From: Myxococcota bacterium
Lineage (GTDB): Bacteria > Myxococcota_A > UBA796 > CAJQPC01
Assembly (NCBI GenBank): GCA_036012755.1
Contig: DASCPX010000133.1
Coordinates: 1-18,411, forward strand
Direction: 5' to 3'
DNA length: 18,411 nt
Part shown: one piece after another, positions 6,075 through 18,411 of the stretch
How the letters are laid out: each line of letters starts with the position of its first letter
Position numbering within the stretch: position 1 is the stretch's first letter
The notes under the pieces: generated by a model
Told to the model about the DNA's origin: nothing
The model's input: only the letters and a program-made list of their open reading frames with translations
Database searches by the model: none
Made by a program: the position numbers and the translations under genes

Positions 6075-7151
6075 ATGCTGCTTCTCAGCTTCCTGACCGC
6101 TTGCTTGCCTCAGCTCGGGCGCCACGACCGGCCCGATGACGAGACCATCCCCGGCGACGACCTCATGAGCGTCGACGCCATCACCCCCGGCTACTCCAGC
6201 ACCCTTGGCGGTGACGAAGCCGAGATCACCGGAGGCCCCTTCGACGGCAGCGTCAGCGTCGTCATCGGAGGCAACCAGGCAGAGGTGCTCTCGGTCGAGG
6301 CCGACCGGTTGATCGTCGAGCTCCCGCCTGCCTCGGAGGGCATGCGGGACGTGATCGTCGAGAGCGACCTGGCCACGGCCGAGCTCGAGGACGGCATTCG
6401 CTACTTCACCGATGGCACGGGACTCGCCGGAACTGTCGGCGCCATCGAGTGGTACGAGCTGCAAGGCAGCTACTGGACAGAGGACTCCAGCGACTTCGGG
6501 AGCGCCTGGTGGGGCCTCGTCGAGCCAGAGGACGTGCACTACTGGACGCTCTTCGGCGTCGAAGAGGACAGCTGCGTCGCGGCCGCGGACTTCCCGAGCC
6601 TGCGCTTCATGGACACCGGACTGGCCACGACCTCCCTGTCCGTCGGCGAGCGCGACATCGAGCTGGAGGCCCTGGACGACCGCACCTTCGACAGCCTCCT
6701 GTCAGCCAACGAGTACCAGGAGTACTCGACCTACGGCGTCGACATCAACGGCGGCGACCTCCCCGACTTCTCGATCCCGGAGCTCGCTCGCACAGGCGCG
6801 GCCTTCGACCTCTACGCACCCTATGTCTTCGGCTCTGCGCCCCCGGAGCTGGCCAAGAACGAGCTCGAGATCGAGTGGGGCCAGGCCGACGCGGACCGCA
6901 TGGTCATCTGGGTCGAGCGCTACGACGAGGACCTCACAGAAGTCATCGAGGCAGTCGCCTGCGTCGCACGCGATGACGGCGAGTTCAAGGTGCCGGGCTC
7001 GGTCTGGGAGCAGGAGTGGGACTACGACCAGTGGCTCTACATCTACGTCGGCGCTGTCCGCGAGGACGGTGGCACCGTGCCGCTGAACAACGCCGAGTCG
7101 CGGGTCGCAGGGGTCTACTGGCTCCTCGGGGCGGCTTCGACCACGAAGTGA
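6075..7151 (+). CDS. Acidic lipoprotein with IPT/TIG-like domain
   Basis: GGAGG RBS before ATG 6075. MLLLSFLTAC lipobox. 'VDAITPGYSSTLGGDEAEITGGPF...VVIGG...LIVELPP..EG.RDVIV' fits the IPT/TIG pattern. Confidence 0.7.
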   Translation: MLLLSFLTACLPQLGRHDRPDDETIPGDDLMSVDAITPGYSSTLGGDEAEITGGPFDGSVSVVIGGNQAEVLSVEADRLIVELPPASEGMRDVIVESDLATAELEDGIRYFTDGTGLAGTVGAIEWYELQGSYWTEDSSDFGSAWWGLVEPEDVHYWTLFGVEEDSCVAAADFPSLRFMDTGLATTSLSVGERDIELEALDDRTFDSLLSANEYQEYSTYGVDINGGDLPDFSIPELARTGAAFDLYAPYVFGSAPPELAKNELEIEWGQADADRMVIWVERYDEDLTEVIEAVACVARDDGEFKVPGSVWEQEWDYDQWLYIYVGAVREDGGTVPLNNAESRVAGVYWLLGAASTTK

Positions 7152-7159
7152 GGGCACCC

Positions 7160-8248
7160 TCAGCGCCCACTCGCCCACGCCATGAAGCCCTCGGGGTCAG
7201 CCTGGATCCGCCGAACGAGGGCCTCCGGTAGGCGCCCCGCTCGGAGACCCAGCTTGTCCTCGCTCACGCCGAGCGCTCCGGAGAGTGCAGCCAGCACCTC
7301 GCTCGTGGGCTGCCGAGCTCCCGACTCGATGCGTGACAGCACGCTCGCAGCGATGCCCGCACGGGTGGCCAGGGCGCGCTGGGAGAGGCCCCTCCGTTGT
7401 CGGCGGGCGCAGAGCCACTCGCCGAAGGGCTGTGGTGTGGGCCTGGGCCTCGTCGCTGGCGCGGCGACGTCCTCGTGAGGCCAGGCGATGCGAGCCCAAG
7501 CGCTGTGGTTGTGGATCGACTCGAGGTTCTCCACGCTCACCTCGAGCCAGGACATCCCCGGCAGCTCGCGCAGGGCGCCGACGACGTCGCGGACGAGGTC
7601 CTCGACGAAGCGAGGGTTCTCGTAGGCCCGCTCCGTCACGTGCTTCTCGTCCTCGCGCTTGAGCAACGCGTAGAGCGGTGAGCTCGCATGGGCCTCGACG
7701 ACCTCGACGATGTCCTCGATCCAGATCATGCCCTCGAAGCGCACCTGTACGTCCACCAACCCGCGCTGGTTGTGGGCACCGTGGCGGCTCACGGCCTTGG
7801 AGCAGGGGCAGAGCGTCGTGACGGGTACGGTCACCCCGAGCACGAAGTCGAGTTCGTCTCGGCGCCGGCTGGCGGCGAAGCGGCAGGGGTACTCCATCAG
7901 CGAGCGGGCCCCGCTCACCGGCGCGCGGCGCTCCAGGAAGTAGGGGAAGCTCACGTCGAGGTAGGCGTCGTCGGCCTGCAGCCTGCGCTGCACCTCGGCG
8001 AGGATGTCCGGCACAGTGCCGAGCGACAGCTCCCCCCGGTGGCTCTCGAGCACCTCGAGGAAGCGGCTCATGTGTGTGCCCTTGAACTCTGCAGGCAGAC
8101 CGACGGAGAGCTGGATCTCCGCGACGGTGTGTTGGCGCTGCCTGGCCTTGTCCCAGACCGTGATCGGGTAGCTCAGGCGGTCGATGCCCACCTGGTCGAT
8201 GGGCAGCTGCCGGTGATCGGACTCGCTCGCGATGTCGGGCATACTCAT
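7160..8248 (-). CDS. folE2: GTP cyclohydrolase IB (FolE2) fused to a C-terminal XRE-family HTH domain
   Basis: IDQVGI, KGTHMSRF, VPVTTLCPCSK, GAHNQR, LLKREDEK, AYENPRFVED, ESIHNHSA. Then a Pro-rich linker and FGEWL..RR...GLSQRALA...GI....LSRIESG.R.P. Start ATG 8248 or 8242. Confidence 0.9.
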   Translation of the reverse strand: MSMPDIASESDHRQLPIDQVGIDRLSYPITVWDKARQRQHTVAEIQLSVGLPAEFKGTHMSRFLEVLESHRGELSLGTVPDILAEVQRRLQADDAYLDVSFPYFLERRAPVSGARSLMEYPCRFAASRRRDELDFVLGVTVPVTTLCPCSKAVSRHGAHNQRGLVDVQVRFEGMIWIEDIVEVVEAHASSPLYALLKREDEKHVTERAYENPRFVEDLVRDVVGALRELPGMSWLEVSVENLESIHNHSAWARIAWPHEDVAAPATRPRPTPQPFGEWLCARRQRRGLSQRALATRAGIAASVLSRIESGARQPTSEVLAALSGALGVSEDKLGLRAGRLPEALVRRIQADPEGFMAWASGR

Positions 8249-8268
8249 ACCGGAAGCGCTAACTGGCG

Positions 8269-8286
8269 GTTGCCATGTCTGGCAAC
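8269..8286. promoter_or_regulatory. Inverted repeat GTTGCCA-N4-TGGCAAC, candidate operator
   Basis: Perfect 7-bp arms in the divergent folE2/oleA intergenic region, 20 bp from the folE2 start. Confidence 0.5.
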
Positions 8287-8371
8287 ATCGGTGTGACCTG
8301 ATTTCAGTTGGTATTGAAGTCAATGAAGTTCTGGGGTAGGTAGGAAGCCCCAGAGCAGTTAGACGGTGACA

Positions 8372-9376
8372 ATGCGCTTTGAGAAGGTCTGCATCGAGGC
8401 CCTCAGCTACGAGCTCCCCCCGCAGGTCCTGACCACGGCGGCGCTGGAGTCCGCGCTGGGTCCGCTGTACTCCCGGTTGGGGGTCCAGCCGGGCTGGCTG
8501 GAGGCGGTGACGGGCATCAGGGAGCGCCGCATGTGGGCTCCAGGTGACGACGCGGTCGCGGCGGCGAGCAGGGCATGCGACAAGGCTCTCGAAGAGGCCG
8601 GTGTGCCTCGCTCACAGGTCGACGTCCTGGTGAGCTGCTCGGTCTACAAGGCCCAGCTCGAGCCCAGCGTGGCCTGCAGGGTCCACCACGACCTCGGCCT
8701 GCGCCCGGGCGCGATGAACTTCGACGTCGGCAACGCCTGCCTCGGACTCCTCTCGGGGATGCAGGTCGTGGGCAACATGATCGAGCTCGGGCAGGCGAGG
8801 GCCGGGCTGGTCGTCGCCGGAGAGTGCAGCCGCGAGGTCACCGGCAACACGATCGCGAAGCTGCTCGAGCCCGACGCGGACATACAGCGCTACCGCGAGA
8901 ACCTCGCCACCCTGACCCTCGGGAGCGCCGCCGCCGCCGTGCTCCTCGTCGACCGCTCCCTGTCCGTGAGCGGCCATCGCTTCACGGGCGGCGTCACCCT
9001 CAGCGCCAGCCAGCACGCTGGCCTGTGCTACGGCGACAACCGGGGCATGACCACCGACCCGACGCGCTTGCTGGCCGAGGGCGTGCGCCTCGCGCGACAG
9101 ACCTGGGACAGCTTTCGGCGGGAGCAGGGGGACTCCAGTGCCTTCGCGCTGCACCAGGTCGGAAAGGCCAACCACGACACGGTCTGCCGGGCGCTGGGCA
9201 TCGACGATCGGCGGGCTCTCCGCATCTACCCGGAGATCGGGAACGTCGGCGCCGCCAGCGTCGCCATCGCCGCGGGCATGTCGGTCGAACAAGGCGCCGT
9301 GCGGCCCGGCGAAGGGCTCACCCTCATGGGCATCGGCAGCGGGCTGAACGTCTCGATGCTGCGGGTCGATTGGTGA
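8372..9376 (+). CDS. oleA: OleA, thiolase-fold acyl-CoA head-to-head condensing enzyme
   Basis: MRFEKVCIEALSYELP start, LEPSVA (catalytic Glu), FDVGNACLG (Cys), LTLGS, HQVG, GNVG, LMGIGSGLN. First gene of an oleABCD order. Confidence 0.9.
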   Translation: MRFEKVCIEALSYELPPQVLTTAALESALGPLYSRLGVQPGWLEAVTGIRERRMWAPGDDAVAAASRACDKALEEAGVPRSQVDVLVSCSVYKAQLEPSVACRVHHDLGLRPGAMNFDVGNACLGLLSGMQVVGNMIELGQARAGLVVAGECSREVTGNTIAKLLEPDADIQRYRENLATLTLGSAAAAVLLVDRSLSVSGHRFTGGVTLSASQHAGLCYGDNRGMTTDPTRLLAEGVRLARQTWDSFRREQGDSSAFALHQVGKANHDTVCRALGIDDRRALRIYPEIGNVGAASVAIAAGMSVEQGAVRPGEGLTLMGIGSGLNVSMLRVDW

Positions 9377-10230
9377 TCCCGGGGGAACTCTACCCGTGGA
9401 CCGGTGACTTCCACGACGTGGACGGCGGTCGCATGCACGTGGTCGACGAGGGCCCGAAGGACGCGCCGGTGCTGCTGGCGGTCCATGGAAACCCGACGTG
9501 GTCCTTCTACTGGCGAGCGCTCATCGAGCACTTCGCCGGGCGCTACCGGGTCGTGGCGGTCGACCACATCGGCTGCGGGCTCTCGGACAAGCCCCAGGAC
9601 TGGCCATACCGACTCGAGGGGCACGTCGAGAACCTCGTGAAGGTCGTCGAGGAACTCGATCTGAGCGACATCACCCTGGTCGTGCACGACTGGGGTGGCG
9701 CCATCGGCATGGGCGCCGCCGAGCGCATGCCCCAGCGCTTCGGGCGGATCGTCGTCACCAACTCCGCCGCCTTTCGCAGCCAGGCGATCCCGCCGAGCAT
9801 CGCCTGCTGCCGCATCCCGGGCTTCGGGGCGGTTGCGGTCCGCGGCTTCAACGGCTTCGCTTGGGCCGCGACCTGGCGCACGACCGTGCGGCCCCTGTCC
9901 AAGGAGGTCAAGGCTGGCCTCACCCACCCATACGACAGCTGGGACAACCGCATCGCCACCCTTCGCTTCGTCGAGGACATCCCGATGAAGCCCTCGCACC
10001 CGAGCTACCAGACCCTCGTCGACATCGAAGACGGCCTCGCCGCGCTCGCGGACAAGCCGATGCTGGTCCTCTGGGGAGAGCAGGACTGGTGCTTCACCCC
10101 CGAGTTCCGCCGCCAGTGGGAGGCGCGCTTCCCCCGGGCAGAGGTCCACGCCTGGCAAGACGTCGGCCACTACGTCATGGAGGACGCCCCCGAGCGGGTC
10201 TGCGAGGCCATCGAGGCCTGGACCGCGTGA
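9373..10230 (+). CDS. oleB: OleB, beta-lactone decarboxylase (haloalkane-dehalogenase-like alpha/beta hydrolase)
   Basis: GTGA overlap with oleA stop. HGNPTWSFYWR, DHIGCGLSDKP, VHDWGG, FVEDIP, GHYVMED. Confidence 0.9.
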   Translation: MIPGELYPWTGDFHDVDGGRMHVVDEGPKDAPVLLAVHGNPTWSFYWRALIEHFAGRYRVVAVDHIGCGLSDKPQDWPYRLEGHVENLVKVVEELDLSDITLVVHDWGGAIGMGAAERMPQRFGRIVVTNSAAFRSQAIPPSIACCRIPGFGAVAVRGFNGFAWAATWRTTVRPLSKEVKAGLTHPYDSWDNRIATLRFVEDIPMKPSHPSYQTLVDIEDGLAALADKPMLVLWGEQDWCFTPEFRRQWEARFPRAEVHAWQDVGHYVMEDAPERVCEAIEAWTA

Positions 10231-11825
10231 ACTTCGCGGCCCGCCTGGACCGGCTCGCGGCAGAGCGTCCCCGGCAGCGTGCCCTCGTGCGGCCAGCTGG
10301 GCGGGACCCTCGCGATGGTCGGAGGCTCTGGGCGCAGCTCACTTTTTCGCAGCTGCACGAGATGACCAACAGCACGGCGCGCGGCTTCGCGAGCGCCGGG
10401 ATCGGGCAGGGCGATCGCGTCATCCTGCTCGTGGAGCCGAGCTTCGAGTTCTTCAGCATCATCTTCGCCCTCTGGAAGCTGGGCGCGGTGCCTGTCCTCA
10501 TCGATCCGGGCATGGGGCTCTCCGGCTTCCTGGCATGCGTGCGCCAGATCCGGCCGAGGGTGTGCATCGGCGTACCGCGCGCGATGCTCCTGTCCAAGCT
10601 CAAGGCCACGGACTTCGAGAGCGTCGAGCTGCGCGTCACCGTCGGGCCCAGCACCTGGTTCTGGGGTGGCGAGACCCTGCCGCTGTTGATGGACCCCGGG
10701 CCACTGCAGACCCTGGATGTGCCGGGTGATGCCGTCGCGGGAGTGCTCTTCACCAGCGGCTCCACCGGTCCGGCGAAGGGCGTCCGATACAGCCACGGCA
10801 TGTTCGAGGCCCAGGCTACGCGCATCGCGGCGCTCTATGGCATCGAAGCGGGCCAGGTCGACGTGCCCTGCTTCCTCCCCTTCGCGATGTTCAGCTGCGT
10901 GATGGGCATGACCGTCGTGCTGCCGGACATGGACTTCAGCAAGCCCGCGACGGCCAGGCCAGAGGCCCTCGCAGAGGCCATCATCGAGCACGGCGCCCAT
11001 CAGCTGGTGGGCTCTCCCGCGGTCATGAGGCGGCTCGCTCGGTGGGCTCCGGACAAGGGCGTGCGCTTTCCCAGCCTCGAGCGCGTGCTCACCTTTGGCG
11101 CGCCGATCCCCCGCGACCTGCACGAGACCTTCCGCGAGCTGCTCGCTGAGGGCGTGGACATCCACACCCCCTACGGCGCCACCGAGGCGCTGCCCGTGGC
11201 GAGCACCTCGACGACCGCGATCCTGGCCGAGCTGGGCGCCCGCACGGCGAGCGGGGAGGGGACCTGTGTCGGCGGCGTCGCTCCGGACACGAACGTAAGG
11301 GTCATCCGCATCACCGACGAGCCGATCCCGACCTGGTCCGAGGAGCTCGTGCTCCCCCCTGGAGAGGTCGGCGAGATCTGCGTGAAGGGGCCCCAGGTCT
11401 CCTCCGAGTACGTCGGGCGGCCAGAGGCCACCAGCGCCGCGAAGATCCAGGACGGCGAGGGCTTCTGGCACCGCATGGGGGACCTCGGCTTTGTCGACGC
11501 ACAGGGCCGTCTCTGGTTCTGCGGGCGCAAGGCACACCGGGTCAGGTGCAGCGACGGCGAGCTGGTCTTCCCCGTTCCACTGGAGGGTGTCTTCAACGAG
11601 GTCGACGGCGTCCTTCGCAGCGCGGTGGTGGAGGTGAGCGGGGCTCCGGTCCTGGTCGTCGAGGGCAAGGCCGACGAGGGGGAGCTCCTGCGGGTGGCCA
11701 AGGCCAACCCGGTGACTCGCCGCGTCGAGCGCGTCCTGTTCCACCCGGGCTTCCCGGTCGACCGGAGGCACAACGCCAAGATCCACCGGCTCCAGCTCCG
11801 GGACTGGGCCAGAGACCGCACGTGA
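10227..11825 (+). CDS. oleC: OleC, AMP-forming beta-lactone synthetase
   Basis: GTGA overlap. LIDPGMG, FTSGSTGPAKG, TPYGATEALP, WHRMGDLG, WFCGRKAHRV, FPVDRRHNAKI. Confidence 0.9.
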   Translation: MNFAARLDRLAAERPRQRALVRPAGRDPRDGRRLWAQLTFSQLHEMTNSTARGFASAGIGQGDRVILLVEPSFEFFSIIFALWKLGAVPVLIDPGMGLSGFLACVRQIRPRVCIGVPRAMLLSKLKATDFESVELRVTVGPSTWFWGGETLPLLMDPGPLQTLDVPGDAVAGVLFTSGSTGPAKGVRYSHGMFEAQATRIAALYGIEAGQVDVPCFLPFAMFSCVMGMTVVLPDMDFSKPATARPEALAEAIIEHGAHQLVGSPAVMRRLARWAPDKGVRFPSLERVLTFGAPIPRDLHETFRELLAEGVDIHTPYGATEALPVASTSTTAILAELGARTASGEGTCVGGVAPDTNVRVIRITDEPIPTWSEELVLPPGEVGEICVKGPQVSSEYVGRPEATSAAKIQDGEGFWHRMGDLGFVDAQGRLWFCGRKAHRVRCSDGELVFPVPLEGVFNEVDGVLRSAVVEVSGAPVLVVEGKADEGELLRVAKANPVTRRVERVLFHPGFPVDRRHNAKIHRLQLRDWARDRT

Positions 11826-12826
11826 AGGCCCTCGTCACCGGCGGCGGTGGCTTCCTCGGCAGCGCCATCGTGCGCCTGCTGCGAGCGCGCGACGACGAGG
11901 TGGTCGTCCTCGGCCGCAACCACTACCCACACGTCGAGGAGCTCGGCGCCACCTGCGTGATCTGCGACATCGCAGAGGGCGGGGCGGCCCTCGATACGGC
12001 CCTCGTCGGTGTGGACGTCGTCTTCCACGTCGCGGCCCTCGCCGGCATGTGGGGCCCCTATGAGCGCTACCGGCGCGTCAACGTGCAAGGCACGCAGACC
12101 GTGCTCGAGGCGGCCAGGCGAGCCGGGGTCCGGCGCTTCGTCCACACCTCCAGCCCCAGCGTGACCTTCGACGGTCGGAGCGAGGAGGGGGTGCGCGAAG
12201 AGGACTGCAGCTACCCCGAGACCTTCCTCTTCCACTACCCGGCGACCAAGGCAGAGGCAGAGGCCTGGGTGCTCGCCCAGGACTCCGACGTGTTGGCCAC
12301 AACCGCCCTGCGCCCTCATCTCATCTACGGCCCCGGGGATCCCCACCTCGTGCCGCGGCTCCTCGCCAGGCAGCGAGCAGGACGGCTCAGGGTCCTCGGA
12401 TCGGGGACCAACAAGGTCGCCCTGACCTACGTCGACAACGCCGCCGTCGCCCACCTGCAGGCAGCCGACGCGCTCGCCGTCGGCTCCCCGAACGCCGGTC
12501 GGGCCTACTTCATCACCGACGGTGACCCGGTGGTGGTGTGGGAGTGGCTCGACGAGCTCTTCGAGGCCGTCGGCGCGGGCCGGATCCGGGGGCGGGTCCC
12601 CACCGGGGTCGCCATGCCCCTCGCGGGACTCGTCGAGTGGGTCTGGCGGACCTTCGGCGTGGCCTCCGAGCCCCCGATCACGCGCTTCACGGTGGCCCAG
12701 ACCAGCACATCCCACTGGTACGACCTGCACAACGCGCGAGCGGACTTCTCCTACACCCCCATCGTGGACCCCGAGACCGCTTTTTCCCGCACGGTTGCGG
12801 CCTTTTTGGGGCCTCCCGCCCGCTGA
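11822..12826 (+). CDS. oleD: OleD, 2-alkyl-3-oxoalkanoate reductase (3-beta-HSD-like extended SDR)
   Basis: GTGA overlap. VTGGGGFLG, HTSSPSV, YPATKAEAE (YxxxK), LRPHLIYGPGD, YVDNAA.AH. Confidence 0.9.
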   Translation: MKALVTGGGGFLGSAIVRLLRARDDEVVVLGRNHYPHVEELGATCVICDIAEGGAALDTALVGVDVVFHVAALAGMWGPYERYRRVNVQGTQTVLEAARRAGVRRFVHTSSPSVTFDGRSEEGVREEDCSYPETFLFHYPATKAEAEAWVLAQDSDVLATTALRPHLIYGPGDPHLVPRLLARQRAGRLRVLGSGTNKVALTYVDNAAVAHLQAADALAVGSPNAGRAYFITDGDPVVVWEWLDELFEAVGAGRIRGRVPTGVAMPLAGLVEWVWRTFGVASEPPITRFTVAQTSTSHWYDLHNARADFSYTPIVDPETAFSRTVAAFLGPPAR

Positions 12827-12922
12827 CCCACGGGTCAAAAAACAAACCCACAGGTTTTTTTGGATGCCAAGGGCGTGCAATCCGGATGATCTGCGGAATT
12901 GTGTCCAACTCGTCAACGCAAC

Positions 12923-12938
12923 CCCCTGAATTCAGGGG
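12923..12938. promoter_or_regulatory. Perfect 16-bp palindrome CCCCTGAATTCAGGGG upstream of pfaD
   Basis: Read directly, 45 bp upstream of the TTG start. Confidence 0.45.
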
Positions 12939-12983
12939 TAGAAGGCCCGGTCACCGGAGTCATGACCCGGTGCGGGAGATCGC

Positions 12984-14600
12984 TTGATCGAGAATCACCT
13001 CGTCGGAGCCTGGACGCAGGGTCCGACGCCCCCCAACTTCGATGGTCCTGACGTCCTCGCGGCCGTCCAGCGCATCCGTGAACCGGTCCACATCGTGCAG
13101 GAGCCCGAGGGCCGGGTCGGTGTCGCCTTCCAGGGCGGCGTCATCTCGACCGAGATGGTCAACGGGAGACCCTCCTTCCCGCTCCTGGCCACGCTCCCCC
13201 CCCTGTACCCGGAGTGGCTCGGCGACCGCAGCTTCTGCGAGGTCCACGGGACGCGCTACCCCTACCTCCAGGGCGCGATGGCCAACGGCATCGCCACGAC
13301 CCGCATGGTCATCGCCATGTGCCAGGCGGGCTTCCTCGGCTTCTTCGGCGCCGGGGGGCTCGGGCTCTCGCGCATCGAGGCCGCTGTCGACGAGCTCATC
13401 TCGTCGGTGGGCGACAGGCCGAACTGGGGCTGCAACCTGATCCACGCCCCCCAGGAGCCGGACCTGGAGCAGGCCACGGTCGAGCTCTACCTGGCACGCG
13501 GCGTGCGCCGGATCTCGGCTGCGGCCTTCATGAAGCTCACGCCGATGGTGGTGCAGTACTCCGCCAGTGGGCTCCGGGAGCTGCCTGACGGGCGCGTGGT
13601 CAGGAAGAACCACGTCTTCGCGAAGATCAGCCGCCCAGAGGTCGCCGCCCACTTCATCAACCCCGCCCCGGACGAGATGCTCGATGCCCTCGTCGCTTGC
13701 GGGCGCCTGAGCCCGGAGGAGGGTCGCCTGGCCCGCCGGGTCGCCGTCGCCGAGGACATCATCGTCGAGTCCGACAGCGGCGGTCACACGGACAACCGGC
13801 CCCTCGGCGCGCTCTTCCCCGTCATCGTCACCTTGCGGGACGAGCTCGTGCGCCGGCACGGCTACAGCCGGCCCATCCGGGTCGGCGCTGCTGGAGGCAT
13901 CGGCACCCCCGCCGCCGCCGCTGCTGCCTTTTCGCTCGGCGCGGCCTTCGTGCTCACCGGCTCCGTGAACCAGGGCGCGGTCGAGTCGGGGCTCTCCGAG
14001 GAGGGCCGGGTGATGCTCGCCAGCGCCGGCCTCGCCGACGTGACCATGGCACCCGCCGCCGACATGTTCGAGCTCGGGGTCGAGGTCCAGGTCCTTGGCC
14101 GCGGCACGATGTTCGCGATGCGCGCCAAGCGCCTCTACGAGACCTACGAGCGCTACGCCGGCCTCGAGGACATCCCCGCAGATGTCCGCGCCAGGCTCGA
14201 GAAGCAGGTCCTCGGCCTCTCACTCGAGACCGTCTGGTCCAACACCCAGTCCTTCTGGACCGAGCGCGACCCGCGTGAGCTGGAGCGCGCCGAGGCCGAC
14301 CCCAAGCACAAGATGGCCCTCTGCTTCCGCTGGTATCTCGGGCTGTCCAGCCGCTGGGCCATCACCGGCGATGCGTCGCGTCGCCTCGACTACCAGATCT
14401 GGTGCGGCCCCGCGATGGGCGCCTTCAACAGCTGGGTCCGCGGGAGCGTCCTCGAGCCCGTCGAGAACCGCCGCGTCGTCCAGATCGCCCTGAATCTCGT
14501 GGAGGGCGCCGCGCACATCACGCGCGCGCAGCAGCTCCGCACCTACGGCGTGGCCGTCCCCGCCGCTGCCTTCGACTTCCGTCCCCGGAACCTGTCATGA
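12984..14600 (+). CDS. pfaD: PfaD/Pfa1, FMN-dependent enoyl reductase of PUFA synthase
   Basis: GAMANGI, NLIHAP, AKISRPEVA, ESDSGGHTDNRP, GAAGGIGTP, MAPAADMFELG, DYQIWCGPAMGAFN. GGGAG before TTG. Confidence 0.92.
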   Translation: MIENHLVGAWTQGPTPPNFDGPDVLAAVQRIREPVHIVQEPEGRVGVAFQGGVISTEMVNGRPSFPLLATLPPLYPEWLGDRSFCEVHGTRYPYLQGAMANGIATTRMVIAMCQAGFLGFFGAGGLGLSRIEAAVDELISSVGDRPNWGCNLIHAPQEPDLEQATVELYLARGVRRISAAAFMKLTPMVVQYSASGLRELPDGRVVRKNHVFAKISRPEVAAHFINPAPDEMLDALVACGRLSPEEGRLARRVAVAEDIIVESDSGGHTDNRPLGALFPVIVTLRDELVRRHGYSRPIRVGAAGGIGTPAAAAAAFSLGAAFVLTGSVNQGAVESGLSEEGRVMLASAGLADVTMAPAADMFELGVEVQVLGRGTMFAMRAKRLYETYERYAGLEDIPADVRARLEKQVLGLSLETVWSNTQSFWTERDPRELERAEADPKHKMALCFRWYLGLSSRWAITGDASRRLDYQIWCGPAMGAFNSWVRGSVLEPVENRRVVQIALNLVEGAAHITRAQQLRTYGVAVPAAAFDFRPRNLS

Positions 14601-17600
14601 CCACTCGCTCACCCATCGCCGTCGTCGGCGTCTCCGCCATCTTCCCAGGCTCCGTCGACGCCACCGGCTTCTGGAAGGACATCCTCGCGGGCACCGACCT
14701 GATCCGCGACGTGCCGCGCAGCCACTGGCTCATCGACGACTACTACGACCCGGATCCGGCCGCCCCCGACAAGACCTACGCCAAGCGCGGTGCCTTCCTC
14801 GAGGACATCCCCTTCGACCCGCTCGAGTGGGGCGTCCCGCCCAGCATCGTGCCGGCCACCGACACCTCCCAGCTCCTCGCGCTCATCACGGCGAAGCGGG
14901 TGCTCGAGGACGCGGCGGGTGGCCAGTTCGCCGAGATGGACAAGAGCAGGATCAGCGTCATCCTCGGCGTCACCAGCGCCCAGGAGCTGCTGGGATCCAT
15001 GAACAGCCGCCTCCAGAAGCCGGTCTGGCGCAAGGTCCTGCGCGACGCTGGCCTGCCCGAGAGCAAGGTCGTCGAGCTGCTCGGCCGCATCGAGGGCGAG
15101 TACACCCCCTGGCAGGAGGCCAGCTTCCCGGGGCTCCTCGGCAACGTCGTCGCCGGACGCATCGCCAACCGCCTCGACCTCGGCGGAACCAACTGTGTCT
15201 GCGACGCTGCCTGTGCCTCGGCCTTCAGCGCGGTGTCGATGGCTGCAAACGAGCTCTGGCTCGGACAGTCCGATGTCGTCATCACCGGCGGCGTCGACAC
15301 CATGAACGACATCTTCATGTTCATGTGCTTCAGCAAGACGCCAGCCCTGTCCCCCTCCGGGGACGTGAAGCCCTTCTCCGACGAGGCCGACGGCACCATG
15401 CTCGGCGAGGGGATGGGGATGGTCGCCTTGAAGCGTCTCGAGGACGCCGAGCGTGACGGTGACCGCATCTACGCCGTGATCACGGGTGTCGGCTCCAGCA
15501 GCGACGGGCGCGCCAAGAGCGTCTACGCCCCCCGTCCCAGCGGGCAGGCCTCTGCGCTGGAGCGCGCCTACGACGCCGCCGGCTACGGCGCCGACACGGT
15601 GGAGCTGGTCGAGGCCCACGGGACCGGCACGAAGGCCGGCGACGCCGCCGAGTTCGAGGGGCTCACCATGGCCTTCGACCACAGCGGCCGACAGGACCGC
15701 CGCTGGTGTGCGCTGGGAAGCGTGAAGTCCCAGATCGGCCACACCAAGGCCGCCGCGGGCAGCGCTGGCCTCTTCAAGTCGGTCATGGCGCTGCACCACA
15801 AGGTCATCCCCCCGACCATCAAGATCGACCGTCCGAACCCCAATATGGACCTCCAGGGCTCGCCCTTCTACCTGTCCACGCGTGCCCGTCCCTGGGTCCG
15901 CGGCCCAGAGCACCCCAGGCGTGCCGGCGTGTCGAGCTTCGGCTTCGGCGGGAGCAACTTCCACCTCGCCCTCCAGGAGTACACCGGGGACCACAAGGCC
16001 AGCTTCCGTCGCTGGGGCGGGCCCGAGATCGTCGTCTTCGGAGCGGACTCCTCGGAGGCTCTGCTCGCGCAGCTGCGCAGCCTCGATCTCTCAGGCGATG
16101 GCTGGCTCGAGTGGCTCGCTCGTGACTCGCAGCAGAGCTACTCCGGTGGCCAGGCCCGCCTCGCCATCGTGGCATCCGACGTCGAGGACTTCCGCACCAA
16201 GCTCGAGCTCGCGCTGAGCCACCTGCAGGACAAGCCCGGCAAGCCGCTGGCCTCTCCCAAGGGCATCCACTACGGCTTCGGCGAGGCTGGCAAGACCGCC
16301 TTCGTCTTCCCCGGTCAGGGCAGCCAGTACGTCGACATGGGAGCCCAGGTCGCGATGACCTGGCCCGAGGCAGTGGGTGCCTGGGACGCCGCAGAGGGCG
16401 CCGTCGCCGGACTCGCGGACATCGTCTTCCCCCGCCCGGACTTCTCCGCCACCGCTGAGGACTGGCAGACCAGGCTGACCGCCACCGAGTGGGCCCAGCC
16501 CGCCATCGGCGCCTGCTCGCTCTCGCTCTTGAGGGTGCTCTCTCGCCTGGGTGTCAGCGCCGACTGCGTCGGTGGACACAGCTATGGAGAGGTCACCGCG
16601 CTCCACGCAGCGGGCGTGCTCAGCGCAGAGGACATGCTCCGGGTCGCCCGCCGTCGAGGCGAGCTCATGGCCCAGGCGGCGAAGACCCCGGGCTCGATGA
16701 CCGCCGTCGTCGCGGACATCGAGAGTGTTCGGCCAGTGGTCGAAGACAGCGGCCTCGACGTCGTGGTCGCGAACCACAACAGCCCGCGGCAGGTCGTGCT
16801 CAGCGGCCCGACCAAGGCCATCGATGGAATCGAGCAGGCCCTCGACGCTGCGGGGCTTCCCTTCCGGCGCCTCGGTGTCGCCACCGCTTTCCACTCCAGC
16901 GTCGTCTCCGACAGCGTCGGCCCCTTCGCCGAGGCCCTCGCAGAGGTCGACTTCGCCACGCCGACGCTGCCGGTCTACGCCAACAGCGAGGCGGCTCCGT
17001 ACCCCAGCGAGCCAGCGGCGATCCGCGAGCTGCTCGCTGGCCAGATCGCCCGGAGCGTGCGCTTCGTCGACCAGGTCGAGGCCATGTACGCCGCCGGCGT
17101 GCGCGTCTTCGTCGAGGTCGGCCCACACGCGGTGCTGACGGGTCTCGTCGCGCGCATCCTGAAGGGGCGTCCGCACGCGGCCGTGCCCCTGGACAAGAAG
17201 GGCAAGGACGGCCTGGTTCAGCTGCAGGACGGCCTCGGCCGCCTCGTCGCCGCTGGCGTCGAAGTGCAGCTCTCGAAGCTCTGGGAGGGCTGGGCCGAGG
17301 CCGTCGACCCCCGCAGCCTCCCGGCTCCCAAGATGCTCATGCACATCAACGGGGCCAACTACGGCAAGCCCTATCCGCCGCCAGAGGGCCAGATGCCTGG
17401 TCCCAACCCGGAACTCGAGCCCGAGGTCATCGTGAAGGAAGTCATCAAGGAGGTCCGCGTCGAGGTCCCTGTGGAGGTTCCGGTGCAGGCTCCGGTGCAG
17501 GCTCCCGGGCGCGCCGCAGCCCGTCCGGCAGCGGACGGTTGGGTCCAGGCCTTCCAGGAGAGCCAGCGTCAGACCGTCGAGGCCCACTCGGCCTTCCAGG

Positions 17601-18411
17601 ACGCGATGACCCGCTCCCACACCGTCTTCCTCGAGTCGATGGAGCGCAGCTTCGGCCAGCTCACCTCGATGGTGACCGGGGCCCCCGCCCCCCAGCCGCC
17701 AGCTCGCGTCGCGCAGCCCGCGGCGGTCGCCGCACCAGCACCCGTCGCCGCACCCGCGTCGGTCCCGGTGCCGTTGGCAGCCGCTCCGATCCCGACTTCG
17801 ACCCCCGCCGTCGCCGCTCCGGCTGTTGACCTCGACGCGCTCATGAGCGCGCCCCAGCCGGTGGCCCCTGTGGCCTCTGTGGCCCCTGTGGCGCCTCCGG
17901 CCTCCCTCGACCTCCACGCGCTCCTGCTCAGCGTGGTCGCTGACAAGACCGGCTACCCGGCCGAGATGCTCTCTGCGGAGATGTCGCTGGAAGGCGACCT
18001 CGGCATCGACAGCATCAAGCGGGTGGAGATCCTCAGCGCGATGCGCGAGGAGGCCCCGGAGCTTCCGGAGGTCGACGCCGGCGCGATGGCCGAGCTGAAG
18101 ACCCTCGGCCAGATCGTCGAGCACATGGCCGCGGCGCTGCCCGGAGCCACCGCGGCACCGGCGCCCGGAGCCACCGCGGCACCGGCGGCCGTCCCGACCC
18201 TCGACCTGCACGCGCTCCTGCTCAGCGTCGTGGCGGACAAGACCGGCTACCCGGCGGAGATGCTCTCTGCGGAGATGTCGCTGGAAGGCGACCTCGGCAT
18301 CGACAGCATCAAGCGGGTGGAGATCCTCAGCGCGATGCGCGACGAGGCCCCGGAGCTTCCGGAGGTCGACGCCGGCGCGATGGCCGAGCTGAAGACCCTC
18401 GGCCAGATCGT
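14597..18411 (+). CDS. pfaA: PfaA/Pfa2 iterative PUFA synthase: KS - malonyl AT - tandem ACPs; truncated at window end
   Basis: ATGA overlap with pfaD stop. MTTRSPIAVVGVSAIFPG, DAACAS (Cys 15212), EAHGTGT, KSQIGHTK, FPGQGSQY, GHSYGE (Ser 16580), TAFHS, and two LGIDSIKRVEIL ACPs (Ser 18011 and 18305), all in one frame. Absent from the ORF track. Confidence 0.93.
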   Translation, partial: MTTRSPIAVVGVSAIFPGSVDATGFWKDILAGTDLIRDVPRSHWLIDDYYDPDPAAPDKTYAKRGAFLEDIPFDPLEWGVPPSIVPATDTSQLLALITAKRVLEDAAGGQFAEMDKSRISVILGVTSAQELLGSMNSRLQKPVWRKVLRDAGLPESKVVELLGRIEGEYTPWQEASFPGLLGNVVAGRIANRLDLGGTNCVCDAACASAFSAVSMAANELWLGQSDVVITGGVDTMNDIFMFMCFSKTPALSPSGDVKPFSDEADGTMLGEGMGMVALKRLEDAERDGDRIYAVITGVGSSSDGRAKSVYAPRPSGQASALERAYDAAGYGADTVELVEAHGTGTKAGDAAEFEGLTMAFDHSGRQDRRWCALGSVKSQIGHTKAAAGSAGLFKSVMALHHKVIPPTIKIDRPNPNMDLQGSPFYLSTRARPWVRGPEHPRRAGVSSFGFGGSNFHLALQEYTGDHKASFRRWGGPEIVVFGADSSEALLAQLRSLDLSGDGWLEWLARDSQQSYSGGQARLAIVASDVEDFRTKLELALSHLQDKPGKPLASPKGIHYGFGEAGKTAFVFPGQGSQYVDMGAQVAMTWPEAVGAWDAAEGAVAGLADIVFPRPDFSATAEDWQTRLTATEWAQPAIGACSLSLLRVLSRLGVSADCVGGHSYGEVTALHAAGVLSAEDMLRVARRRGELMAQAAKTPGSMTAVVADIESVRPVVEDSGLDVVVANHNSPRQVVLSGPTKAIDGIEQALDAAGLPFRRLGVATAFHSSVVSDSVGPFAEALAEVDFATPTLPVYANSEAAPYPSEPAAIRELLAGQIARSVRFVDQVEAMYAAGVRVFVEVGPHAVLTGLVARILKGRPHAAVPLDKKGKDGLVQLQDGLGRLVAAGVEVQLSKLWEGWAEAVDPRSLPAPKMLMHINGANYGKPYPPPEGQMPGPNPELEPEVIVKEVIKEVRVEVPVEVPVQAPVQAPGRAAARPAADGWVQAFQESQRQTVEAHSAFQDAMTRSHTVFLESMERSFGQLTSMVTGAPAPQPPARVAQPAAVAAPAPVAAPASVPVPLAAAPIPTSTPAVAAPAVDLDALMSAPQPVAPVASVAPVAPPASLDLHALLLSVVADKTGYPAEMLSAEMSLEGDLGIDSIKRVEILSAMREEAPELPEVDAGAMAELKTLGQIVEHMAAALPGATAAPAPGATAAPAAVPTLDLHALLLSVVADKTGYPAEMLSAEMSLEGDLGIDSIKRVEILSAMRDEAPELPEVDAGAMAELKTLGQI
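17906..18411 (+). repeat. Near-identical ACP-coding direct repeat, period 294 bp (17906.. vs 18200..)
   Basis: The two copies differ by a few synonymous changes and one E/D. The linker holds a 24-bp duplication (PGATAAPA x2, 18140-18187). Confidence 0.92.

Follow-up and report, generated by a model that had tools for sequence, protein, structure and literature searches.

Bifunctional enzyme-repressors are known from vitamin and amino-acid pathways, as in BirA, NadR and PutA, which are ligand-gated and have N-terminal DNA-binding domains. Que and folate genes are controlled largely by riboswitches, and the operators of 434 and lambda lie in tandem, spaced by about two helical turns. Known FolE2 proteins (GTP cyclohydrolase IB) are stand-alone enzymes of about 257–300 aa, often in Zur regulons, and Zur is the known control of folE2, according to PMC6103462 and PMC11672702. 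The closest analogue found for the gene described here is RbkR, an archaeal riboflavin kinase and regulator that likewise joins a cofactor-pathway enzyme to a DNA-binding domain, whose operators were likewise derived from comparative genomics and whose own gene is in its regulon; its winged HTH is N-terminal and joined to a kinase core, its regulon spans several genes, and ligand control has been demonstrated (CTP up, FMN down; PMC5397151).

Here we analyze folE2-XRE, a gene in an 18,411-nt stretch of DNA (the window, meaning the whole stretch analyzed) from the genome G000 of a member of an uncultured Myxococcota order. Compared with stand-alone FolE2, the protein adds an in-frame C-terminal XRE domain and a predicted private operator, and in contrast to RbkR it carries its XRE domain at the C-terminus of a T-fold hydrolase, with a regulon that is apparently its own operon only. 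The enzyme folds of BirA, NadR and PutA are unrelated to that of the fusion, which may work like RbkR or BirA/NadR yet belongs to none of these. With the XRE/Cro-C1 phage-type repressors (P22 c2, 434, ClgR, SinR) it shares the HTH fold and signature residues, and the likeness extends to a 16-bp palindrome with an N6 spacer and to tandem operators about two helical turns apart; unlike those repressors, it would presumably owe its oligomerization to the enzyme tetramer plus a short tail, and it is not in a prophage. The initial annotation knew of no described FolE2-HTH fusion, and likewise none was found in the full-text literature, subscription journals and supplements aside, nor was any report found there of a DNA-binding GTP cyclohydrolase I. 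Patterns detected across relatives indicate that the fusion is real and conserved, and an autoregulatory operator, although predicted, is well supported by comparative evidence.

Table 1. Features of the folE2-XRE locus, in positions of the window
Feature	Position	Strand	Basis or remark
folE2-XRE fusion gene	8248-7160	-	362 aa, without internal stop (translation); alternative start ATG at 8242
FolE2 / GTP cyclohydrolase IB domain	7481..8248	-	Pfam and NCBIfam profiles, N. gonorrhoeae FolE2 alignment, Foldseek
Linker, Pro/Ala-rich	7427..7480	-	homologue alignment, predicted structure
XRE/Cro-C1 HTH domain	7265..7426	-	Pfam HTH_3, residue conservation
Conserved three-helix tail, LRAG..P..L..RI..DPEGFL.W	7163..7264	-	alignment, predicted structure
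-10-like hexamer (TTAGCG/TAGCGC)	8256..8262	-	17-18 nt past -35
Conserved element GDCAA-N7-TTGHC-N6-GDCAA	8297-8270	-	overlaps -35 box of folE2-XRE
Predicted proximal operator TTGCC-N6-GGCAA	8270..8285	.	inside 18-bp perfect palindrome 8269-8286
Predicted distal operator, 23 bp upstream of proximal	8293..8308	-	conserved right arm GTCAC (8297-8293); degenerate left arm in this genome
Divergent oleABCD-like operon	8372..12826	+	Pfam/NCBIfam; neighbour, not conserved target

By every feature testable here the protein is predicted to be a FolE2, and by its domain and the comparative operator evidence an XRE regulator. Pfam GCHY-1 (PF02649) matched residues 3–252 over the whole model at 304.7 bits (cut-off 25), HTH_3 matched residues 282–333 at 54.3 bits (cut-off 23), and the NCBIfam FolE2 equivalog NF010200 scored 286.2 (cut-off 215), with MptA and GCH-IV scores under their cut-offs. 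This bears out the earlier reading of an intact FolE2 running in frame through a linker into an HTH, both Pfam cut-offs being passed within one 362-aa frame; the HTH span given then, 7426–7160, does contain a complete HTH (7426–7265), but the remainder is a tail of about 30 aa. FolE2 residues C147 (7810), C149 (7804), H159 (7774), E201 (7648), E243 and H246 were all present, numbered as in N. gonorrhoeae FolE2 (3D2O) from residue 106 on, where the alignment is ungapped, and all six count as metal-ligand or active-site residues. In PMC11672702, C149 and E201 bear the same numbers as in the fusion. Against GTP cyclohydrolase IB structures (N. gonorrhoeae 3D2O/5K95, N. europaea 2R5R, and 8G6C) identity was 45–50% and TM 0.88–0.91 by target over about 245 residues, and the best 11 Foldseek matches were all FolE2 structures (8G8V/3D2O, E~1e-29, TM 0.89–0.91 by target). 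Eight active-site positions were intact in 180/184 fused sequences, counted over protein and locus sets that overlap, and in the HTH R283 and E308 were kept in 119/121, Q290 was kept in 116/121 and S305 was over 90% conserved. In the predicted structure (pLDDT 92) a tandem T-fold is joined by a loose linker to an HTH of five helices, with additional helices in the tail; the linker, the least confident part of the model (pLDDT 59), ranged from 17 to 45 aa across homologues and varied in sequence too, with column conservation of 0.26, compared with 0.72 (core), 0.59 (HTH) and 0.58 (tail). With so variable a linker, tethering would fit at least as well as allostery, and classical allostery appears less likely; as to gating of DNA binding by substrate or product, the linker points neither way. 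The three-helix tail, which occurs on other XRE proteins as well, may serve in dimerization. Enzyme domain and DNA-binding domain are conserved together in one chain, the enzyme activity being predicted from its residues.

Both GCHY-1 and HTH_3, the architecture to look for according to the initial annotation, were found in 118/120 of the best homologues listed. Among 121 genomes of the order searched, 61 had a match at E<=1e-30, with the full-length fusion at 51 places in 50 genomes, and in two families of the order the fusion is near-universal, FolE2 matches occurring in 20/21 and 24/24 genomes and being mostly full fusions. FolE2 was present in 57/301 genomes of the phylum sample, where the loci examined included 3 fused outside the order and 26 unfused. 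Among 80 named loci listed there were at least two full fusions, both in Myxococcota MAGs, the rest being mostly unfused folE2, which served as controls, and in the Atlas a 201-member cluster has the fusion architecture, with Myxococcota its commonest phylum. In trees of the FolE2 domain a branch with support of 100 and 98 separated the fused forms, together with a small number of HTH-less genes, from the rest, a pattern that fits one fusion event followed by several losses of the HTH. To an assembly or read-through artefact merging two genes we give practically no weight. The C-terminal 109 aa are called separately in one record and short HTH-only records exist, but the full fusion recurs as counted above, and a check of short records put P0157 and P0225 in clusters with longer members, while P0172 and P0174 start inside the FolE2 C-terminus. 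The separately called piece, P0122, is a database record from the same contig and reflects a partial gene call, the frame being open rather than split; no other record came from a search for short stand-alone relatives. Assembled contigs from four runs were listed without indels, and the contigs of three of these runs cover the junction. One contig covers the entire stretch with one difference at 8249, and its run may be the source of the window; a contig of run X7 (7054–7478) and two of run X8 (7332–7482 and 7476–7626) were identical to the window. Conservation of the fusion already refutes the artefact reading. Position 8249, just 5′ of the start codon, is G in contigs of two runs and A in the window.

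An operator-like element precedes the gene, and a palindrome recurs in the upstream regions of relatives. With the leader defined as the 170 nt 5′ of folE2, or 5′ of a directly preceding queE/queC, an unseeded palindromic motif search of 34 fused leaders returned TTGcC..at..GgCAA with a log-likelihood of 162.7, against 39.3 for 34 unfused leaders. When leaders were scored with leave-group-out matrices over 18 groups, 10 bits or more was reached by 23/33 fused leaders, 7/103 unfused leaders and 0/26 unfused leaders of the same phylum; among 21 held-out fused loci outside the matrix, 15/21 reached 10 bits and 17/21 reached 8 bits. Scores under 10 bits occurred in 6/21 held-out and 10/33 training loci, several with variant right arms (GTCCG, GTCAC), and scores of at least 12 bits in four unfused leaders, all from other phyla. 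With TTGHC set at 0, a right arm GDCAA was found at −12 in 25/32 loci and at +11 in 28/33, TA followed 17 nt after the hexamer in 20/33 fused leaders, and the distal left arm at −23 was found in 11/32 only. One locus with 37 nt upstream (L143) was left out of the motif counts; also left out were two loci without upstream DNA (L334, L336) and two whose HTH state is cut off by a contig end (L337, L338), both of which have the site; the layout anchors of L138 and L022 were set by hand.

The left arm of the proximal operator is the −35 hexamer TTGCCA of the folE2-XRE promoter, and since it doubles in this way, conservation of that part of the palindrome has a separate cause. The −35 does not account for the right arms: TTGHC is paired with GDCAA at spacer 6 in 15/41 cases in fused leaders, compared with 0/52 in unfused leaders and 5/1205 in G000 upstream regions, and the arms are kept without a divergent gene, at +11 in 9/11 and at −12 in 10/11 loci where the upstream gene is co-oriented. 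The window site had the top score (16.6 bits) among 5757 G000 upstream regions, tied with the divergent oleA that shares the same region, and four other regions scored 15.7–16.4 bits. Perfect TTGCC-Nx-GGCAA occurs 0–8 times per spacer by chance in G000, so that a single genomic occurrence is not itself unlikely and it is position, not rarity, that bears the argument; the three-arm pattern with one mismatch allowed had background matches in 106/121 genomes and does not discriminate genome-wide. The ATG at 8248 comes within about 7 nt of the −10, and the mRNA may be leaderless. A generic promoter scan found nothing at 7000–8500, because the −10 is degenerate. A sigma54 promoter, considered for its GG..TTGC likeness, was rejected, the spacing being 12 bp here and sigma54 spacing occurring in 0/33 leaders. 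The intergenic strand folds well (z −3.15), and a riboswitch or RNA hairpin was also considered; Rfam gave no match in the window, riboswitch or other, and nothing beyond a tRNA in 5 related loci; the predicted start site lies downstream of the palindrome, and the spacer pairs in just 12–15/33. This candidate too was rejected. Zur boxes are AT-rich; the recovered motif is not, and a Fur-family gene is present in G000.

There was also variation in the element among relatives. Variant right arms GTCCG or GTCAC mark a sub-clade with L136 and L144 (also L142, L308, L310, L312, L314 and L315), and are repeated at the 23-bp spacing in L136, L142 and L144; the helix reads SESLVCKLE in both L136 and L144, which hints that helix and operator co-vary. 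Genome G012 has two fused copies (L135 and L161), of which one adjoins ole and the other belongs to a queC-queE-folE2 cluster close to a dpdB-cluster gene, and these differ in operator variant and in recognition helix.

Comparison with relatives that lost the HTH shows that the palindromic site is gained and lost together with it. Six in-clade losses were identified (L166, L328, L329, L330, L331 and G001) in which the gene stops directly behind the FolE2 core and no HTH follows; G001 was pieced together from two overlapping contig ends, its 5′ part being L335 and its 3′ part L334. L332 and L333 lie outside the fused clade and were left out of this count. The losses fall on separate branches of the tree, and 0/6 leaders reached 10 bits (Fisher p=0.003, for a small set of kin that are not independent). 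L330 and L331 kept a −35-like TTGHC and lost the right arms, and L166 was kept as a loss case in that its two sites of at least 10 bits lie 2–3 kb upstream, both inside ORFs and without a distal arm or −10. In G001, of the same genus as the window, oleA is still divergent (71% identity) and the IPT gene still convergent (56%), with HTH and site both absent. An operator-like palindrome that lies over the gene's own −35 and tracks the HTH agrees with the earlier proposal that the fusion may control transcription of itself.

The regulon looks like the gene's own operon. Where the fusion lies downstream of queE or queC-queE, the site precedes the first gene (L131–L135, L140, L141, L147 and L149), and when 10 folE, 8 queC, 30 PTPS and 30 folP loci of relatives (about 3.5 kb each) were scanned, strong tandem sites were found only at folE2-linked promoters. 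In G000 there was no site at 5/5 PTPS, tgt and pterin-binding (folP, MetH-like) loci. A wider regulon over unlinked pathway genes was looked for and not found in these scans or among the G000 upstream regions. Upstream neighbours of fused loci included oleA (8/34), a DTW-domain gene, an IPT gene and a divergent queD; the upstream gene was divergent in 15/26 classified loci, and 11 loci had no divergent gene. L134 and L140 have dpdA/dpdB next to the fusion, L135 has a dpdB-cluster gene there, and in L140 (genome G209) a single cluster holds dpdA, dpdB, divergent queD, queC-queE-folE2-XRE and a second queC.

Control of the divergent ole operon, the other target initially suggested, did not hold up as the purpose of the element, since oleA is divergent in no more than the 8/34 fused loci, in L151, where it is located elsewhere, there is no site upstream of it (3.0 bits at best), and G001 keeps oleA where HTH and site are gone. 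The distal site ends about 64 nt from the oleA start codon, and an incidental effect on oleA is possible in G000. A second perfect palindrome at 8314–8325 (ATTGAAGTCAAT) overlies a possible oleA −35, and a similar stretch is kept in G001 (L335) without the folE2 operator; this palindrome may belong to the ole promoter. The plus strand at 8372–18411 carries the oleABCD-like operon followed directly by pfaD and pfaA-like PKS genes, a polyunsaturated olefin cluster. At the other end of the window, on the minus strand at 1–429, there are two tandem paralogous small lipoprotein-like ORFs, one at 217–429 and the other starting near 99 and truncated by the contig end; their features are a signal peptide, DENAD repeats and a long Cys repeat, (NAC)n. 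They had no Pfam or NCBIfam match, and resemble a modified-peptide precursor or a metal-binding repeat.

In G000 (96% complete) there was no FolE, QueC or QueF match, whereas FolK, FolP, a PTPS/QueD-like gene, a QueE-like gene and two TGTs were present. Because the fusion is the only GCH-I found there and folK and folP are present, its enzyme most likely serves folate in this genome. The two TGTs lie at C190:105861-107018 and C27:87233-88336, with no QueC or QueF match there, suggesting salvage of Q precursors. FolE was also present in 22/31 fused genomes, and QueC was above cut-off in 7/32 genomes searched. In P0153 and P0250 the FolE2 scaffold has lost its catalytic motifs while HTH and tail are intact, as they are in P0284, which has lost both cysteines; P0153 and P0250, as singletons, may be decaying genes, and a search with P0250 for a family of enzyme-dead fusions found no close one (best 43% identity).

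We consider it probable that FolE2-XRE represses its own transcription unit, with the tetramer bringing pairs of HTHs to two operators that lie 23 bp from each other. According to section 4.3.3 of PMC11672702, FolE2 assembles as a dimer of dimers, and its metal site is completed by E201 of the opposite dimer. The T-fold core would convert GTP to 7,8-dihydroneopterin triphosphate, leading to folate in G000 and to preQ0 in relatives with que operons, and the presumed tetramer would bear four HTHs on flexible tethers. Pairs of these are predicted to bind TTGHC-N6-GDCAA, strongly at the −35 and more weakly at the operator 23 bp upstream of it, and with as many as four half-sites, spaced about 11/12/11 bp or roughly one helical turn, binding by the assembled enzyme could be avid. 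An occupied −35 would block sigma70 polymerase and so make the amount of assembled enzyme subject to negative feedback; in operons with queE or queC-queE ahead of the gene, all genes would come under the same control. Ligand- or metal-dependent assembly could gate DNA binding. It is possible, although rather unlikely in our view, that the catalytic tetramer is itself the sensor, with metal or GTP loading assembling or reshaping it and bringing four HTHs onto four half-sites; this reading arises because the active site spans the dimer-dimer interface, with E201′ coming from the other dimer.

Alternative explanations would assign the site or the enzyme a different part. Two-operator switches are known from restriction-modification controller proteins and from lambda OR, and here distal binding might activate or prime while binding at the −35 represses, and the shared region might bring a divergent gene (oleA, queD) under the same regulation. 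We regard this as improbable: the proximal −35 site is better conserved than the distal one, whose left arm is often lost, 11 loci have no divergent gene, and oleA of L151, apart from folE2, is siteless, even though the two sites 23 bp apart, the divergent upstream gene at 15 of the 26 loci (queD in several), the dpdA/dpdB or dpdB-cluster genes beside L134, L140 and L135, and the fusion of the same HTH and tail to N6/N4 methyltransferases in Atlas clusters would all agree with such a switch.

A quite improbable explanation is that the palindrome is bound by another regulator encoded in trans, or is mere promoter architecture of back-to-back −35 boxes, the HTH having a different role or none. 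The identity of the left arm with the −35, right arms that may be read as an opposite-strand −35 where a gene is divergent, and G000 promoters that score nearly as high are consistent with it, but it would not account for loss of the site in all six in-clade HTH losses, one with unchanged synteny, or for its persistence with co-oriented upstream genes; it is further opposed by the absence of a consistent site at unlinked folP, PTPS/queD-like, tgt or folE loci and by the missing sigma54 spacing. It is very improbable that the FolE2 domain is turning into a sensor or scaffold, so that the fusion is chiefly a regulator reading GTP/H2NTP with catalysis dispensable. Degenerate forms number 3/184, each a singleton, P0250 being without close family, and in G000 no other GCH-I was found; these observations outweigh the loss of catalytic motifs or cysteines in P0153, P0250 and P0284 and the additional FolE of many fused genomes.

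Autorepression by the fusion, the reading preferred here, would involve one gene and one promoter with a predicted 28–39-bp operator, so that both functions are testable in E. coli. The occurrence of the same HTH and tail module on N6/N4 DNA methyltransferases in the Atlas suggests a portable autoregulatory module, and the in-clade HTH losses and enzyme-dead forms offer a natural model for an enzyme gaining or losing a regulatory role. If the tetramer is the sensor, transcription of the folate/preQ0 entry step would read metalation or GTP directly, in this Myxococcota lineage the fusion would take the place, as a protein, of Zur and of preQ1/THF riboswitches, and the repeated HTH losses together with the enzyme-dead fusions would form a natural series from enzyme to pure regulator.
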